Part shown: in pieces, positions 8,821 through 55,872 of the stretch
Layout: the number at the start of each line of letters is the position of its first letter
Position numbering within the stretch: position 1 is the first letter of the stretch
NCBI GenBank assembly: GCA_965209065.1
Contig: OZ242373.1
Span: 320,567-384,566, forward strand
Origin: Alphaproteobacteria bacterium
GTDB taxonomy: Bacteria > Pseudomonadota > Alphaproteobacteria > JAPOUT01 > G958296285
Direction: 5' to 3'
DNA length: 64,000 nt
Translations under genes and position numbers: made by a program
Notes under the pieces: generated by a model
The model's database searches: none
What the model was told of the DNA's origin: nothing
Seen by the model: the letters and a program-made list of their open reading frames with translations, nothing else

Positions 8821-9195
8821 TTGGGTGTAGAAAAAATAGATTTAGCAAAACAAGGGCTTGGCCGTGATATTTCTATTGGACTTTTAAGTGTTTTTTTTGG
8901 AATGTCTTTAGGTTTCATAACAGGGGGAGGGCTTTTAATTCCCCCGAAAGTTTATTTTCACAGCTACTTTGTTCTTTTATCTCTTTCTCTTATAGTTTCT
9001 GCAGTGTCAGCGTTTATGGCAATGTATGGAGTGCGTTTATTTGTAAAGAAAGATTTCTCCGCGCGTGTGATAGTTGGAGTAATTTCTAGCGTTATTGTGC
9101 TGACCTCTTCTTCTATAATTTTAATTTGGTATTTAGGACGCTATACAAAAATATTACATCCGCTTTGGTGGTTCCTTGGTTTTTCAGGAAAATGA
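8821..9195 (+). CDS. small multi-TM membrane protein, paralog 1, in an AT-rich islet
   Basis: 124 aa hydrophobic protein. Clearly paralogous to the next ORF (RDISIGLLSVFFGMSLGFITGG vs RDFMIGFLSAFVGAIYGFFLGA). Confidence 0.55.
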   Translation: MGVEKIDLAKQGLGRDISIGLLSVFFGMSLGFITGGGLLIPPKVYFHSYFVLLSLSLIVSAVSAFMAMYGVRLFVKKDFSARVIVGVISSVIVLTSSSIILIWYLGRYTKILHPLWWFLGFSGK

Positions 9196-9530
9196 AACAG
9201 ATAAGTTTATATAAAAAAGAATCTATGCGTGATTTTATGATTGGCTTTTTAAGTGCTTTTGTGGGAGCTATTTATGGTTTCTTTTTAGGGGCAATGTTCC
9301 TAACAAACCCAATGAGAGATTTCGAACGCTTTGTCGTTGGGTTTTCATCCTATTTTCCTATACTTCTTAGCGTGTTGGTTCTTGTGGGGATAGCCGTAAT
9401 ACATCTAGCCTTGTGGAAAATTTCTTCTGAACAAACTAGAACGATTATAACTGTTTTATTTTTTATTACTTATGGTATAAGTTTAACTTGGTTTTCATTT
9501 TATGCTTGGGATAGTAATTTTTTCTTTTAA
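9192..9530 (+). CDS. small multi-TM membrane protein, paralog 2
   Basis: Start chosen at MKQISLYKK. The ATGA overlap with the stop of paralog 1 suggests translational coupling. Confidence 0.55.
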   Translation: MKQISLYKKESMRDFMIGFLSAFVGAIYGFFLGAMFLTNPMRDFERFVVGFSSYFPILLSVLVLVGIAVIHLALWKISSEQTRTIITVLFFITYGISLTWFSFYAWDSNFFF

Positions 9531-9597
9531 AATAAAACATATAGGAGGAAATGATGGTGCTATGCTTAAAGCTCATCATTGAAGAGGGAGGTTTAAA

Positions 9598-10017
9598 TTG
9601 AAATTCTTAAATATGAATATGATTATACCATTCAAAATGCTTACAAGGCTTTTATCGCTTTTGGGAGGCATGCACATAATTTTTAAACTTCTTATTTTTA
9701 TACCCGGTGTTGTTCTCGGATCATTTTTTGCATTTCTTACGCTTGTGGGTGTTGGAATCCGTCCTGATGAAGAAATTTCTGCTAATGAAGTTCTTTTAAA
9801 AGCTATTCAAGTTTTCTTTTACCTCCTTTGGGCGTTTGGTGTCCCTGGGCTGATATTGTTTCTTGTTTTTAGTTTATCTGTATTGCTTTTTGAGCCAGCA
9901 AGTAAGCGCGCGCCCGATTTTGCACTCCAGGTGAGTTCAGTACTTTTTTTTCTACTTTTTGTTTCTATAACTTGGTGGATAACAGCAAAAGTTCTCATAA
10001 TTGATATGATTTTTTAA
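9598..10017 (+). CDS. small multi-TM membrane protein 3, a more distant relative of the two upstream paralogs
   Basis: 139 aa. TTG start 8 nt after a GAGGGAGG RBS (alternative ATG at 9613). Four predicted TM helices. Confidence 0.5.
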   Translation: MKFLNMNMIIPFKMLTRLLSLLGGMHIIFKLLIFIPGVVLGSFFAFLTLVGVGIRPDEEISANEVLLKAIQVFFYLLWAFGVPGLILFLVFSLSVLLFEPASKRAPDFALQVSSVLFFLLFVSITWWITAKVLIIDMIF

Positions 10018-28617: not shown

Positions 28618-28689
28618 TTAACGCTGCGTGAGCTTGAACTCTTAACGCTGGGTGAGCTTGAACTCTTAACGCTGGGTGAGCTTGAACTC
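28618..28689. repeat. 3 x 24-bp perfect/near-perfect tandem repeat (ttaacgctg[c/g]gtgagcttgaactc)
   Basis: Seen directly. One copy encodes the last 7 codons plus the stop (EFKLTQR*) of the MotB-like gene. The other two copies lie in the fabG/MotB-like intergenic space. Confidence 0.85.
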
Positions 28690-29634
28690 TATGCGCCGAT
28701 TGCGCCGCCACTCATTGGGGTTGGTCGCGCTCTTTAATGGGTGATACTGCCCAAACCCCGCCGCCACCAGATTTTGCGGCGGAACGCCTTGCTCCACCAA
28801 AAATTCAACCACCGCCAACGACCGCGCCACCGATAAATGCCAGTTAGACGGAAATGCCTTCGTCTTGATAGGCTGAATATCGGTATGACCATCGACCCGC
28901 AAAACCCAAGAAACTTTAGGCGGAATAGAACGGCGCACATCATTGATAACGCGCGCAACCTTGCCTAGCTGCACCTTGCCTTGACGCGAAACCCGCGCCT
29001 CTCCCGACCGAAACAAAACCTCTGATTGTAAAATAAATCTATCATCAACAATCTCAAAATCTTTTCTGTCGCGTAAAATATCGCGCAGCGCCTCCATAAA
29101 GGCAGAGCGATAACGCGCTAACTCTTGAACCTTGCTCGCCAAAGCCGTGTTGAGCCGCTTGCCGAGCTCTTTTATTTGCGCTTGAGACTTTTTGTCCTTC
29201 GCCTCGCTTGCTTGGAGCGCGGCTTCTAATGCCGCAAGCTGCTTTCTTAACTGCGCGAGCTGCCGATTCAATAAAACCAACCGCGCGTTCGCTTTTTCTT
29301 TAGCCGCCTTCTCTCCCGTCAAAGCGGAGGCGAGTGCCTTGTTGTTTTTTTTCGTTTTTTCTAAAGAGGCAACGAGCTCCGCCAATTCGGTTTTATAGTT
29401 TTCGCTCGTCACCTTTTCTAATGCCAGCAGTTGCGCTAACTCGGCGATGCGCGTTTCTAATTGCGTTATCGTTTTATCCTTGCCCGAAAGCAAATTGCCC
29501 AAGGTAAATTGCCCGACAACAAACAGCGCAAGCAAAAAAGTAATGACAAGCAACAAGGTTGCCATCGCATCAACAAAACCGGGCCAGAAATCTAACGGCG
29601 CGCGCGCGCGCGAGCGTCTGGCGAGACGCGCCAT
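28666..29634 (-). CDS. MotB-like stator/anchor protein. It has an N-terminal TM plus plug, a roughly 170-aa predicted coiled-coil linker, and a C-terminal OmpA-type peptidoglycan-binding domain.
   Basis: DFWPGFVDAMATLLLVITFLL resembles the MotB N-terminus. The C-terminus (VDGHTDIQP...NWHLSVARSLAVVEFLVEQGV...NRRIEF) is OmpA_C-like. The middle is a heptad-rich Ala/Leu/Lys/Glu sequence. Confidence 0.7.
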   Translation of the reverse strand: MARLARRSRARAPLDFWPGFVDAMATLLLVITFLLALFVVGQFTLGNLLSGKDKTITQLETRIAELAQLLALEKVTSENYKTELAELVASLEKTKKNNKALASALTGEKAAKEKANARLVLLNRQLAQLRKQLAALEAALQASEAKDKKSQAQIKELGKRLNTALASKVQELARYRSAFMEALRDILRDRKDFEIVDDRFILQSEVLFRSGEARVSRQGKVQLGKVARVINDVRRSIPPKVSWVLRVDGHTDIQPIKTKAFPSNWHLSVARSLAVVEFLVEQGVPPQNLVAAGFGQYHPLKSATNPNEWRRNRRIEFKLTQR

Positions 29635-30458
29635 TATTGACCTCGCAATTTAGCCAAAAGTTGGTCAAGCGATTCAGCCACCTCGCTGATGGCAGCTTGC
29701 GATTGACCCGCCGAAATATCGGGCAGGGCGGCGCCATCAAGCGCGAAACGCGCCGAAGTTGAAAGCCAATCCTCCAACTCCATCACAAAGCGGTTTTGCG
29801 CCTGCCCTAGCTGTAAGTCTAAAAAACCCAAAAGCAGCGAGCCGGCTAAACCAAAAAGCGAAGAGGAAAAAGCCGTCCCCATTCCCGCCAGAGGCTTTTT
29901 CAACCCGGCGATAAGCTGTGAAAACAAAACCGCAGATTGCCCGCCTTGTTCGCTCAACGAGGCGATTAAATCACCCACCGAGCTAATCGTAATCAAAAGC
30001 CCCCAAAAAGTTCCAAGCAGCCCCAAAAAAACCAGCAAGCCAATCATATAACGCAAAATTTCTCGCGTTTCTTCCATTCGCGCCGAAACGGAATCCATAA
30101 TAGAGGCAAGGCTCGTTTGCGTTAAAACCAGCTTCCCACCTGAGCGCATCACCATCGCCGCAAGCGGCGCCAGCAACTTAGGCGAAGGCACAGCAGCACC
30201 CGTGCCAGAGCTTAAAACATTCACCCAGCGAATCTCAGGCAGCAAAATCAGCACATAGCGAAAGGCATAAATCGCGCCGAGCACAAACACAAGCACGATA
30301 AGCCCGTTCAGCAGAGGGTTCGCATTAAAAAAAACCGACAACCGATTGGCAGGCGCGCTCAACGCGGCAACCGCCGCGAGGCTTATAAATAAAAAAACCA
30401 CCATGCGCACAATATAAGTCGAGGGCGCCGATAGGGGGGTGGCACTAGGATTAAACAT
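29634..30458 (-). CDS. MotA/TolQ/ExbB-family proton-channel subunit
   Basis: 274 aa with 2+2 TM helices and an roughly 80-aa cytoplasmic loop. GLLGTFWGLLITI is the family signature. Its stop and the start of the MotB-like gene share nt 29634. Confidence 0.7.
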   Translation of the reverse strand: MFNPSATPLSAPSTYIVRMVVFLFISLAAVAALSAPANRLSVFFNANPLLNGLIVLVFVLGAIYAFRYVLILLPEIRWVNVLSSGTGAAVPSPKLLAPLAAMVMRSGGKLVLTQTSLASIMDSVSARMEETREILRYMIGLLVFLGLLGTFWGLLITISSVGDLIASLSEQGGQSAVLFSQLIAGLKKPLAGMGTAFSSSLFGLAGSLLLGFLDLQLGQAQNRFVMELEDWLSTSARFALDGAALPDISAGQSQAAISEVAESLDQLLAKLRGQ

Positions 30459-31756: not shown

Positions 31757-32143
31757 TTATTGCCTCAAAGATATATCTACCCGCTGGCAAGGCGATTCGC
31801 AAATATTGCCTTGAGGCATAAGAATAATGTCTTTTACGCGAACCTTGTGCTGTAGCAGATAATCGCGCACGGCTAAGGCGCGCTTCAAAGAGAGGCGAAA
31901 GGCGCTCCAGCTCGGCTTGTTCGACAAAACCGCGTAGGCTTTTATCTCAAGACGCGTCCTGTTTTTTTTCTGGTCTTTCTGGTCTTTCTGATATTTTTTT
32001 ATCACCCCGTCTAGTTTTGCCGCCGCGCCTATCGGCAGGGTTGCGCTGTCTTCAAAAAATATAATGCGAACTTTATTCTCCGCTAACGCATCTGATAAGG
32101 TAAAAAATAAAAAACAAAAAGCAAATGCACGTAGCATGTTCAA
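31757..32143 (-). CDS. small secreted protein with a degenerate OmpA_C-like domain
   Basis: Signal peptide FCFLFFTLSDALA. IFFEDSATLP...AKLDGVIKKY...SAFRLSLKRALAVRDYLLQHKV follows the OmpA_C pattern but lacks the G-H-T-D turn. It is the last gene of the efp-suhB operon. Confidence 0.45.
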   Translation of the reverse strand: MNMLRAFAFCFLFFTLSDALAENKVRIIFFEDSATLPIGAAAKLDGVIKKYQKDQKDQKKNRTRLEIKAYAVLSNKPSWSAFRLSLKRALAVRDYLLQHKVRVKDIILMPQGNICESPCQRVDISLRQ

Positions 32144-53876: not shown

Positions 53877-54752
53877 ATGGAATACAAGTTAGAATTTTTT
53901 AATAAAAATATTGACGATTCTATAATACATGGAAATGCTCTTGATGTTTTAAAGTCTCTGAACGATCAACTGGTAGATTGTATTATCACTAGCCCCCCAT
54001 ATTATAAGCAAAGGGATTATTTTACAATATCGCAGATAGGGAGCGAACTTACAGAAAAACAATATGTTAATTCGTTAGTTCAAGTTTTTTTAGAAGCAAA
54101 AAGAGTATTAAAAGATACTGGAACTTTTTGGCTAAATTTAGGTGACAAATATGTGGATAATAATCTATTGGGCTTGCCTTGGCGAATAGCTTTAGCTTTG
54201 AAAGAAGTGGGGTGGGTGTTAAGATCTGATATTATATGGCATAAGCCAAACGCAATGCCTTCTTCAGTTAAAAATAGACCCACCATAGACCATGAGTACG
54301 TCTTTTTGTTTGTAAAAACGCAAAAATATTTTTATGATGCTGATGCAATAAGAGAGCCACATATAACTTTTTCTGATAAAAGTAAAATGTCTGGAGGAAG
54401 AAATCATTTTGGAGTACGCAATGGAACTCCAGAAAATGGGAAAAACTCAGGGAATCCAAATCTTCATAACGGTAGATGGGACCAAGCATTCCACCCACTT
54501 GGACGCAATAAGAGAACAGTTTGGAGCGTCCCATTATCAAAATTTCGTGACGCACATTTTGCAGTCTTTCCAGAGAAGCTAATAGAACCATGTATTCTTG
54601 CAGGATGTCCTGTCGATGGGTTAGTATTAGATCCGTTTATGGGATCTGGAACTACAGGTATAGTGGCAATGAAAAATGCTAGAAGGTTTTTAGGAATAGA
54701 TATAAATAAGAAATATTGTAATATGGCTAAGAGAAGACTTATAAACCTCTAA
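53877..54752 (+). CDS. beta-class DNA amino-methyltransferase, SPPY-type (probably N4-cytosine)
   Basis: CIITSPPYY motif IV precedes the DPFMGSGTTG motif I, and AHFAVFPEKL is present. It lies in an AT-rich islet. Confidence 0.85.
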   Translation: MEYKLEFFNKNIDDSIIHGNALDVLKSLNDQLVDCIITSPPYYKQRDYFTISQIGSELTEKQYVNSLVQVFLEAKRVLKDTGTFWLNLGDKYVDNNLLGLPWRIALALKEVGWVLRSDIIWHKPNAMPSSVKNRPTIDHEYVFLFVKTQKYFYDADAIREPHITFSDKSKMSGGRNHFGVRNGTPENGKNSGNPNLHNGRWDQAFHPLGRNKRTVWSVPLSKFRDAHFAVFPEKLIEPCILAGCPVDGLVLDPFMGSGTTGIVAMKNARRFLGIDINKKYCNMAKRRLINL

Positions 54753-55617
54753 ATAAATTGATTTTTTCTACTAGAGCATTGGTTAGTTTTTGTGTCACAT
54801 CAATAATTTGATTTGGGTTCATGTTGATGTATATAAAATCTTTACAGTCGAGATCTGCAAGATTTCCCGTCCACGATTCTGCAATTATAATTGGTAAACA
54901 ATCATGCCCTTCTTCATAAGCAACTCTTATTGCTTTATGAATATCTCTTGTAAAAAGATTAGAATGTCCTCCCCCCATAGTTTCTCTTGTTTTTACAGGA
55001 ACTAAAATAGATTTCGAACCTTTTTTTATTTGAATGTCATAGGTTTCTCCGCTTATGCTTTTTTGTTTTTCACTTACATGTATTGGCAAGTTGTTTTTTT
55101 TAAATAATTCTATTAAGACTCTTCTAACAATTGCTTCAAACAAGTTGCCTTTAATAGCCCTCCTGCTTCCTTCAAGTCTATCTATAACAACTTCTATAAT
55201 TGCATGCCATTCCCAACTTTTTTTATCTGGAAATATGGTTATTAAATTTTTTCTAACTTCATTTATTAAAAATGATTTTTTTTGATATGTATTGCCTTCA
55301 ATAGATGACAAAATAGGTCTAAGCCTTTGTTCTGGGGCATCCCTAAGTATCCATCCACACATAAGCCACTTTGCTTTATCTGATTTGTATGCCCTAGCCA
55401 CTCCATCATATAATTTTATATTATCTGGCATTTGGTGGGCTAAAAATCTTTCTAATACATGCAATGCTTTTGTATCGTCTTTTTCATTTACAAAATCATG
55501 TAAAGATTTATATCCGTTATTATTTAAAAATTTAATTATGTAATAAAAATAATCCTTATTTTTATCAGCGATAATTTTTAATTCTTTTAGACGGATATTT
55601 TCTATAATATACTCCAT
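54739..55617 (-). CDS. putative Type II restriction endonuclease partnered with the adjacent MTase
   Basis: It is convergent with the MTase, overlapping by 14 nt, and shares its low GC. No recognisable family. Possible PD-(D/E)xK-like ...YDIQIK.../...VPVKTRE.... Start at the internal MEYIIEN. Confidence 0.45.
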   Translation of the reverse strand: MEYIIENIRLKELKIIADKNKDYFYYIIKFLNNNGYKSLHDFVNEKDDTKALHVLERFLAHQMPDNIKLYDGVARAYKSDKAKWLMCGWILRDAPEQRLRPILSSIEGNTYQKKSFLINEVRKNLITIFPDKKSWEWHAIIEVVIDRLEGSRRAIKGNLFEAIVRRVLIELFKKNNLPIHVSEKQKSISGETYDIQIKKGSKSILVPVKTRETMGGGHSNLFTRDIHKAIRVAYEEGHDCLPIIIAESWTGNLADLDCKDFIYINMNPNQIIDVTQKLTNALVEKINLFRGL

Positions 55618-55872
55618 AGCTCTCCATAGTTCACATAGATTGTTTATAAAGAGGAAAAGAAAGAAGCACAAGAGCTTAAAGCAAAAAATATATGCTTCTT
55701 TGGTTTGTTCTTTAATTAGCCTCTAGTTTCAGGAGTAAGGAATACGTAAAACACATAAAAAATATGTAAATTGCCTTTATCTTGTTTAAACATATAAGCC
55801 CTTAAAAAACCTGCTTGCCTCGCTGGGGGCGATTTGCTATCATTAAGACTCAAACTTGAAATGGAGGCAAAA

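Follow-up and report, generated by a model that had tools for sequence, protein, structure and literature searches.

The question raised by the stretch of DNA analysed here (64,000 nucleotides of an alphaproteobacterial genome, contig OZ242373.1, positions 320,567 to 384,566; hereafter the window, in whose numbering all coordinates are given) is what kind of machine is built around a MotB-like protein in which a long helical rod separates the transmembrane (TM) helix from the peptidoglycan-binding domain. On our best reading, this protein (gene B) and the product of the gene directly upstream (gene A) form a non-flagellar complex of the MotAB/ExbBD/TolQR/ZorAB superfamily of ion-driven motors, and together they represent a distinct, vertically inherited proteobacterial family. 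The gene B protein runs from a TM helix with an invariant Asp, through a coiled coil whose a/d seam stays in phase and then a zipper and neck, to an OmpA domain with intact contact residues. The two genes and the parts of gene B are as follows (aa, amino acids).

28666-29634, reverse strand: gene B, MotB-like peptidoglycan-binding subunit with a coiled-coil rod, 322 aa, NF006543 / PRK09039 family
29509-29634, reverse strand: gene B residues 1-42, Arg-rich, predicted cytoplasmic N-terminus and single TM helix (AlphaFold2 helix from residue 18)
29569-29571, reverse strand: codon of Asp22, putative proton-binding residue in the FWPGFVD motif, invariant in 57 homologues
29074-29508, reverse strand: residues 43-187, helical rod predicted to be periplasmic, about 145 residues long (about 21 nm when straight)
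29419-29502, reverse strand: residues 45-72, conserved membrane-proximal coiled-coil module, consensus LSGRDxALxxLxxQIAELxxLLALE
29290-29418, reverse strand: residues 73-115, variable heptad-quantised segment, 43 aa here and 34-469 aa in relatives
29308-29322, reverse strand: residues 105-109 within the variable segment, weak-core candidate hinge, with a predicted local distance difference test (pLDDT) score below 50 at 105-108
29074-29289, reverse strand: residues 116-187, conserved distal module made up of a leucine zipper (L119-L140) and a neck (about 156-187)
28672-29058, reverse strand: residues 193-321, OmpA/MotB-type peptidoglycan-binding domain with the contact motif N264-x2-L267-x3-R271
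29634-30458, reverse strand: gene A, partner subunit of the MotA/ExbB/TolQ/ZorA superfamily, 274 aa, four predicted TM helices, translationally coupled to gene B

The reading frame of gene B starts with an ATG that has a GAGG Shine-Dalgarno site 7 nt 5' of it and overlaps the upstream TAA stop codon in the sequence TAATG. Its product scores 362.2 bits (E = 4.5e-108) with the NCBIfam model NF006543 (PRK09039.1-2, "peptidoglycan-binding protein"), above the cut-off of 305, and two long orthologues, from loci L081 and L083, score 417.7 and 444.4 bits with the same model, both above the cut-off as well. The protein is thus a member of the series NF006542-NF006546 (PRK09039.1-1 to -5), whose models give a name only, without assigning a function, a partner or a rule for a coiled coil. 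When 1.84 billion cluster representatives were searched with a profile, 1,428 family representatives with E <= 1e-30 were recovered from Alpha-, Beta- and Gammaproteobacteria, and each of them represents a cluster formed at 50% identity or more; the nearest relatives are from alphaproteobacterial metagenome-assembled genomes, one of them with a complete chromosome of 1.6 Mb.

Alignment of 57 homologues showed which parts of the protein do not change. At the membrane, W17, P18, G19 and D22 are invariant, and the positive-inside rule suggests that the N-terminus lies in the cytoplasm. L59, L66, L70, L72 and E73 are near-invariant in the membrane-proximal module, the invariant residues of the distal module include N123, Q125, Q132, L140, I154, L157, G158, L161 and N162, and D252, N264, L267, S268 and R271 are invariant in the OmpA domain. 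The spacing of N264, L267 and R271 is that of the ZorB peptidoglycan-binding residues N152, L155 and R159, which are essential in ZorB (PMC11946911). In a Pfam scan the OmpA domain was found at residues 207-313 (E = 1e-13) and otherwise only weak generic coiled-coil matches were obtained, while a profile search of the Protein Data Bank (PDB) sequences with gene B returned OmpA-like domains only. Structure comparison of the AlphaFold2 model with the PDB by Foldseek matched the C-terminal domain alone, to the periplasmic domains of MotS (9ljl), PomB (3wpw) and MotB (3s06) with E values from 2.5e-12 to 1e-9 and TM-scores by target of 0.74-0.80 for the top matches, and gave no globular fold for the middle region. 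The invariant TM Asp together with a peptidoglycan-binding domain of the OmpA type bears out the view taken in the preliminary description of this gene that the protein is MotB-like.

The middle of the protein has the composition of a helical rod: in residues 45-200 Leu makes up 17%, Ala 16%, Lys 12% and Glu 10%, Pro is absent and Gly occurs 4 times, and the two peptides by which the segment had been recognized, LETRIAELAQLLALEKV at 59-75 and LRKQLAALEAALQASEAKDKK at 129-149, are both present. A single heptad register is kept from the TM helix to about residue 168, and the hydrophobicity power at a period of 3.5 is 48.6 in comparison to 10.5 +/- 10.6 for shuffled sequences, a value reached by 1% of the shuffles. 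In the AlphaFold2 monomer model built on a 57-sequence alignment (mean pLDDT 76.9), helices span residues 18-104 and 110-187 and are followed by an OmpA-like alpha/beta fold at 193-321; the TM helix runs directly into the periplasmic helix, and the separate plug that had been placed with the TM segment before the rod is not there. The dimensions first given for the rod also have to be revised. A long helical segment is present, but its helical part covers about 145 residues (43-187) rather than about 170 (45-215), which corresponds to about 21 nm if straight and not to 25 nm. Nor is the whole segment an insert: in comparison to the closest of the short B subunits the added part is only about 110 residues long (45-155), and residues from about 156 to 187 or 200 form a conserved neck common to B subunits of the ZorB3/PRK09040 type, and the hidden Markov model (HMM) of ZorB3 and NF006547 both align from residue 156.

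The family as a whole provides the strongest evidence on the nature of the rod. Rod length was measured in 141 family representatives, each less than 50% identical to the others, between HMM anchors placed on the conserved N module, whose last residue here is 72, and the conserved C module, whose first is 116; these replaced regular-expression motif anchors, which had missed 48 of 201 and then 127 of 150 sequences. The best 150 of the 1,428 representatives are 254-926 aa long, which places the 322-aa gene B product among the shortest complete members, and the variable segment between the anchors ranges from 34 to 469 residues, with the 43 residues found here again among the shortest. Modulo 7, the variable length equals that of this protein in 106 of the 141 representatives; it is shifted by +4 in 20 others and by +3 in 9, which leaves only 6 for the remaining four classes. 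The +3 and +4 offsets are the classical stammer and stutter offsets of coiled coils. When moduli 3-11 and 14 were tested, only 7 and its multiple 14 were significant (p about 2e-86). An alternative length measure put 103 of 141 in class 0, and the rule persisted when each distinct length was counted once (39 of 73) and with independent, looser motif anchors (59 of 77). Rod lengths thus change almost only by whole heptads or by +3/+4, which argues for one uninterrupted coiled coil.

A second measure comes from the 16,251 variable-region residues of 81 long-rod representatives. With the heptad phase set from the N anchor alone, the fraction of Leu, Ile, Val, Met and Phe is 0.59 at a and 0.47 at d, in comparison to 0.07-0.13 at the other positions; the e and g positions are charged, Ala is found at b, c and f, and the a/d pattern is equally strong in the middle third of the variable region. 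Such residue patterns are the hallmark of a two-stranded coiled coil that has a narrow seam and no interruption. The coiled coil is supported far beyond chance by these family-level statistics, and the heptad register and the absence of a globular Foldseek match point the same way, so that the middle region is a coiled coil and not a globular domain. The narrow a/d seam, the charged e/g positions and the heptad-quantised lengths also fit the dimeric coiled-coil stalk that had been suggested for this protein. The suggestion that the rod matches the full width of the periplasm fails as a family constraint, since orthologues at the same efp-suhB-A-B locus, whose B proteins are 320, 343, 489, 703 and 746 aa long, have helical regions of 136-571 residues, about 20-85 nm if straight, with this protein at the short end.

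Gene A lies directly upstream of gene B in the same orientation in 77 of 80 loci, and the other three do not have enough upstream DNA. The genera represented include Rhizobium, Neorhizobium, Hoeflea, Stappia and other Hyphomicrobiales, Elstera, Thauera and other Rhodocyclaceae, and Xanthomonadales-like genera, and in Alphaproteobacteria the gene order is efp-suhB-(OmpA-like)-A-B. Gene A passes the Pfam MotA_ExbB model (PF01618) marginally, with 26.0 bits against a gathering score of 22.9, and its best profile match is the PADLOC ZorA1 model (44.6 bits, 2e-12); longer A relatives score 45-53 bits with PADLOC ZorA profiles. No MotA, TolQ or ExbB model was matched in the NCBIfam scan of gene A, and the NCBIfam ZorA models gave 14.8 bits for NF033917 (cut-off 500) and 13.8 bits for NF033915 (cut-off 100), with at most 20.9 bits for the longer A proteins. 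The motifs LLGTFWGL and TAFSSSLFGL are invariant. By hhalign, the segment FLGLLGTFWGLL of the A profile, with LLGTFWGL against FGTVWGI of TM2, was aligned to residues 139-159 of E. coli TolQ, the helix that carries Thr145, in a short and weak match of 21 columns (probability 25%), and a short weak match to E. coli MotA was also obtained (probability 16%). TM2 and TM3 are spaced by about 55 residues, which leaves no large torque-generating domain of the MotA type.

After TM4 the gene A protein of the window has only about 50 residues, whereas most relatives carry a helical cytoplasmic tail, a shortened counterpart of the ZorA tail, of about 100-160 residues (about 100-140 in most loci) and in one case (L026) of 344; the clade formed by this gene A and those of L001, L002 and L009 has lost the tail. 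Across loci L001-L084 tail length ranges from about 19 to 344 residues (for example L026 363-2078, L083 3850-4986 and L068 4930-5997). In many Beta- and Gammaproteobacteria and some Alphaproteobacteria the tail ends in the motif E-[IL]-R-x-E-[IL]-[RK]-L-[LM]-[AS]-R-T-[IL]-A-A. The lengths of A tail and B rod are correlated (Spearman 0.79), a value that reflects few clades which are not phylogenetically independent and is not used as evidence here.

Taken together with the known motors of this superfamily, these features lead us to favour, with moderate confidence, a continuous parallel dimeric coiled coil that would be fixed to the wall within a proton-driven complex of the A5B2 type. By analogy, the stoichiometry would be A5B2, the B dimer would be parallel, and ion flow would be coupled to rotation. 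Two B chains would form a parallel, in-register dimer, the dimer would be held to the cell wall by its OmpA domains as a stiff, torque-resisting tether or axle, and proton flow by way of A (with its channel motif of the Thr150 type) and B (Asp22) would turn the A ring around the B dimer. The conserved peptidoglycan-contact residues suggest that B stays fixed. In E. coli the inner membrane and the peptidoglycan are about 9 nm apart (PMC11946911), and the rod found here, about 21 nm if straight, is about twice that length. Across the family the range of lengths is tenfold and the rod is therefore no fixed perpendicular ruler spanning the periplasm; it probably lies tilted or along the wall. Because A and B are conserved here while the A tail has been lost, the role kept in this lineage is probably a periplasmic or envelope one (coupling or sensing between inner membrane and cell wall) rather than cytoplasmic signalling.

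Several observations weigh against this picture. The alignment-based AlphaFold2 monomer has a low-confidence break at 105-109 that could be the tip of a hairpin, a stretch rich in Gly and Pro is found near the middle of many short-rod homologues from Alphaproteobacteria, and a periplasm has no room for perpendicular rods of 40-85 nm. On the side of the partner, the Pfam MotA_ExbB score of gene A is barely above the gathering score and most of its homologues have no precomputed Pfam hit, and when the A profile was compared with PDB sequences there was no match at E <= 1 to the membrane part of the solved MotA, ExbB, TolQ or ZorA structures; only designed coiled coils were matched, through the tail of the relatives.

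The first of these observations leads to the alternative that survives best, namely that the helical region folds back on itself near 105-109 into an intramolecular antiparallel hairpin, which would be a spike or, in the dimer, a four-helix bundle, so that the OmpA domain stays beside the membrane as in ZorB and the length of the hairpin is free to vary. The break (pLDDT < 50) is near the mid-point of residues 45-170, a hairpin excursion would let the length vary tenfold with the OmpA domain unmoved, and the modulo-7 rule by itself is compatible with a hairpin, to which one added layer also contributes 7 residues. The sequences of the long rods argue otherwise. In the 81 long-rod representatives the a/d seam does not weaken at the mid-point and Gly/Pro does not become more frequent there, Gly and Pro being evenly spread, and some rods have no Gly or Pro at all across variable regions of 85-211 residues. 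The e and g positions are not enriched in Ala or hydrophobic residues, as a four-helix bundle would need, and the conservation is asymmetric, since in a hairpin the conserved zipper 119-140 would pair with the variable residues 74-95. The position of the break also depends on the model: a single-sequence AlphaFold2 model (pLDDT 48.9, OmpA domain unusable) breaks the helix at different places from the alignment-based one. A hairpin should give an antiparallel diagonal at i+j of about 214, and none was seen there by covariation analysis, in a test that is underpowered with an effective sequence number of about 171; between the N and C modules the best antiparallel diagonal by mutual information had z = 3.2 at i+j = 182, the parallel control had z = 3.18, and clade markers dominate. 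We therefore regard the hairpin as unlikely, and residues 105-118, with L, E, K and A at the core positions, may be a local hinge in a continuous rod.

It is also conceivable, if improbable, that the pair is no longer an ion-driven motor and that gene B only staples the inner membrane to the peptidoglycan, at a set distance, through a rigid dimeric rod. Such a passive tether would agree with the missing cytoplasmic tail of gene A in this lineage, with its weak match to MotA_ExbB, and with the small genomes of the lineage (1.6-1.9 Mb in relatives). It would need neither gene A nor the Asp, yet gene A is retained and translationally coupled in every locus, and Asp22 of B and the GTFWG and TAFSSS motifs of A are invariant in Alpha-, Beta- and Gammaproteobacteria, this clade included.

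The neighbourhood of the pair bears on the two remaining alternatives. In the window it is flanked on one side by fabG and fabD, with rpsF, rpsR, rplI and dnaB beyond fabD, and on the other by a methylase-HNH gene, a small OmpA-like gene, suhB and efp. Two of these neighbours need to be described.

31757-32143, reverse strand: small secreted OmpA-like protein, 128 aa, possible accessory component, Pfam OmpA 31.9 bits
30529-31743, forward strand: N6/N4 DNA methyltransferase with a C-terminal HNH fusion, 404 aa, Pfam E = 5e-45 and 8e-13

The 128-aa OmpA-like protein is 45% identical to the product of a gene in L002 and 37% identical to the C-terminus of one encoded ahead of A in L081. A homologue is found immediately upstream of A in several alphaproteobacterial loci, L081-L083 having OmpA-domain genes in this position, and the protein may be a lineage-specific third component. 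Elsewhere the gene is found at about 4800-5130 in L002, 2551-3789 in L081 and 2637-3770 in L083, and its product is up to about 380-410 aa long, with an extended N-terminal region rich in Pro and Ala. The Rhizobium-type loci that were inspected leave no room for it, the gap between suhB and A being about 225 bp in L016. No conserved third gene beyond the OmpA-like protein, and no gene resembling ZorC, D, E, F or G, was found in any of the 84 loci, and the conserved neighbours checked by Pfam in representative loci are housekeeping or metabolic genes, including an ABC transporter, none of them flagellar. The methylase-HNH gene lies between the small OmpA-like gene and gene A, 70 bp upstream of A, in a stretch with a G+C content of 0.44 in comparison to about 0.51. 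It looks like a recent insertion upstream of the operon, because no counterpart was found in the closest syntenic loci, L001 and L002, by a tblastn screen.

Two further stretches of the window were noted in passing. A second N6_N4 DNA methylase gene (53877-54752, forward strand, E = 1e-56) overlaps tail to tail with a 310-aa open reading frame (ORF) without a Pfam hit (54739-55671, reverse strand); the pair lies in the stretch of lowest G+C content of the window (0.33) and is probably a horizontally acquired restriction-modification system. At 8821-10017 on the forward strand, between genes resembling aspS and guaB, three tandem ORFs encode very hydrophobic small proteins of 124, 134 and 139 aa in a stretch of 41% G+C without any ORF of at least 200 aa.

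By profile, ZorA and ZorB are the closest relatives of the pair, which raises the possibility that A and B are ZorA and ZorB homologues acting in antiphage defence, perhaps together with the adjacent methylase-HNH gene on the opposite strand. PADLOC ZorA1 for A (with ZorA3) and ZorB3 for the neck and OmpA domain of B (6e-21) are the best defence-library matches, and on the four window proteins that were submitted only ZorA/ZorB and methylase models were matched. The two systems also share adjacent genes in the order A then B, an invariant Asp in the TM helix of B, a dimeric peptidoglycan-binding domain with the N-x2-L-x3-R motif, and, in most relatives but not in this window, a helical cytoplasmic A tail, which reaches 344 aa in L026. 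The two systems differ in several respects. ZorB has no linker, its peptidoglycan-binding domain following directly on the TM helix (PMC11946911), whereas gene B has the 145-residue rod and its family has rods of 110 to more than 500 residues at this place; conversely the ZorA tail is about 500 residues long in comparison to about 50 here and 19-344 in relatives. The NCBIfam ZorA cut-offs of 100-500 are widely missed at 14-21 bits. The loci contain no effector-like gene, their neighbours being efp, suhB, the ABC transporter and metabolic genes, the core-genome synteny, kept all the way between Hyphomicrobiales and the present lineage with its small genomes, is the reverse of what marks a defence island, and the methylase-HNH gene is missing from the closest loci. 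We consider a defence function for the pair very improbable.

That the two genes are an ordinary flagellar stator, MotA and MotB, is hardly credible despite the names given to homologues ("chemotaxis protein MotB" by JGI, "flagellar motor protein MotA" by NCBI), the rank of MotD as top NCBIfam match outside the family's own models and the C-terminal fold resembling MotS, PomB and MotB, since the flagellar models score far below their cut-offs (MotD 103 against 283, MotS 84 against 264, MotB 61 against 301, 54 against 300 and 50 against 250), gene A matches no MotA model and has only the 55-residue TM2-TM3 spacing in place of the cytoplasmic torque-generating domain of MotA, gene B shows helices at 18-104 and 110-187 with no Pro and 4 Gly in 45-200 in place of a plug and Gly/Pro-rich linker, and the neighbours are not flagellar. 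In rhizobia motA and motBC belong to the flagellar regulon, apart from the efp-suhB locus. What the pair does share with MotAB, PomAB and MotPS is a single TM helix with a catalytic Asp, the same OmpA-like fold (Foldseek E to 2.5e-12), a four-TM partner immediately upstream and, presumably, the 5:2 architecture. MotB is defined here, after PMC12505986, by a plug and a flexible linker; the Gly/Pro-rich linker of MotB has about 50 residues, and the gene B family has a rigid heptad coiled coil in its place. The homologues are thus not ordinary flagellar MotB proteins, and because no curated flagellar model supports them, the database names "MotA" and "MotB" for this family are probably misannotations, which mislead for thousands of genes.

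Comparison with the other motors of the superfamily further separates the pair. It resembles TolQR in its housekeeping, core-genome status, and in functional terms the closest analogy to gene B is a fusion, in one chain, of TolR (TM helix with Asp), the long periplasmic helix of TolA domain II, and Pal, the OmpA-like peptidoglycan binder. Unlike TolR and ExbD, however, gene B has no periplasmic domain of their type, matches no TolR or ExbD model and ends in an OmpA domain; gene A has four TM helices in comparison to three in TolQ, no TolA, TolB or Pal genes are nearby, and no tolA- or tonB-like neighbour was seen. GldL-GldM is a motor of the 5:2 type in which the dimeric single-TM subunit has a long periplasmic extension; in GldM this extension is built from globular domains, contacts partners in the outer membrane and has been proposed to rotate. 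Gene B differs in being a coiled coil that ends in a wall-binding domain, and by this analogy it is more likely the fixed part. Our literature searches turned up neither an account of the family, nor a MotB-like protein with a coiled coil in the periplasm, nor a phenotype. In a 2025 survey of MotAB relatives the non-flagellar B subunits are typically without plug and linker, and the present architecture is absent from that survey (PMC12505986).

In general, the gene B family is one that had already been catalogued (PRK09039), while the coiled-coil length rule is new, and the family is widespread and structurally distinctive. We put forward tentatively, as a possibility rather than as an expectation, that A and B represent an unrecognised class of housekeeping 5:2 rotary motors in Proteobacteria, related to ZorAB but vertically inherited, in which the wall-anchored B dimer has a continuous periplasmic coiled coil of 20-85 nm that evolves in length by heptads. 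This rod would link motor and sacculus as a cable or lever of high torsional stiffness, perhaps to sense or control the relationship of inner membrane to wall in a manner dependent on the proton-motive force, and the variable cytoplasmic tail of the A ring would be the output in most lineages. Each of the characterised 5:2 motors (MotAB, ExbBD, TolQR, GldLM and ZorAB) embodies a different mode of energy transfer in the envelope, to which A-B would add a further, apparently housekeeping branch; the design of ZorAB appears inverted in it, with the long coiled coil on the periplasmic, wall-bound subunit. The heptad quantisation is a simple structural rule that can be tested, and if the rod works as proposed, it would bear on how the inner membrane is mechanically coupled to the cell wall.

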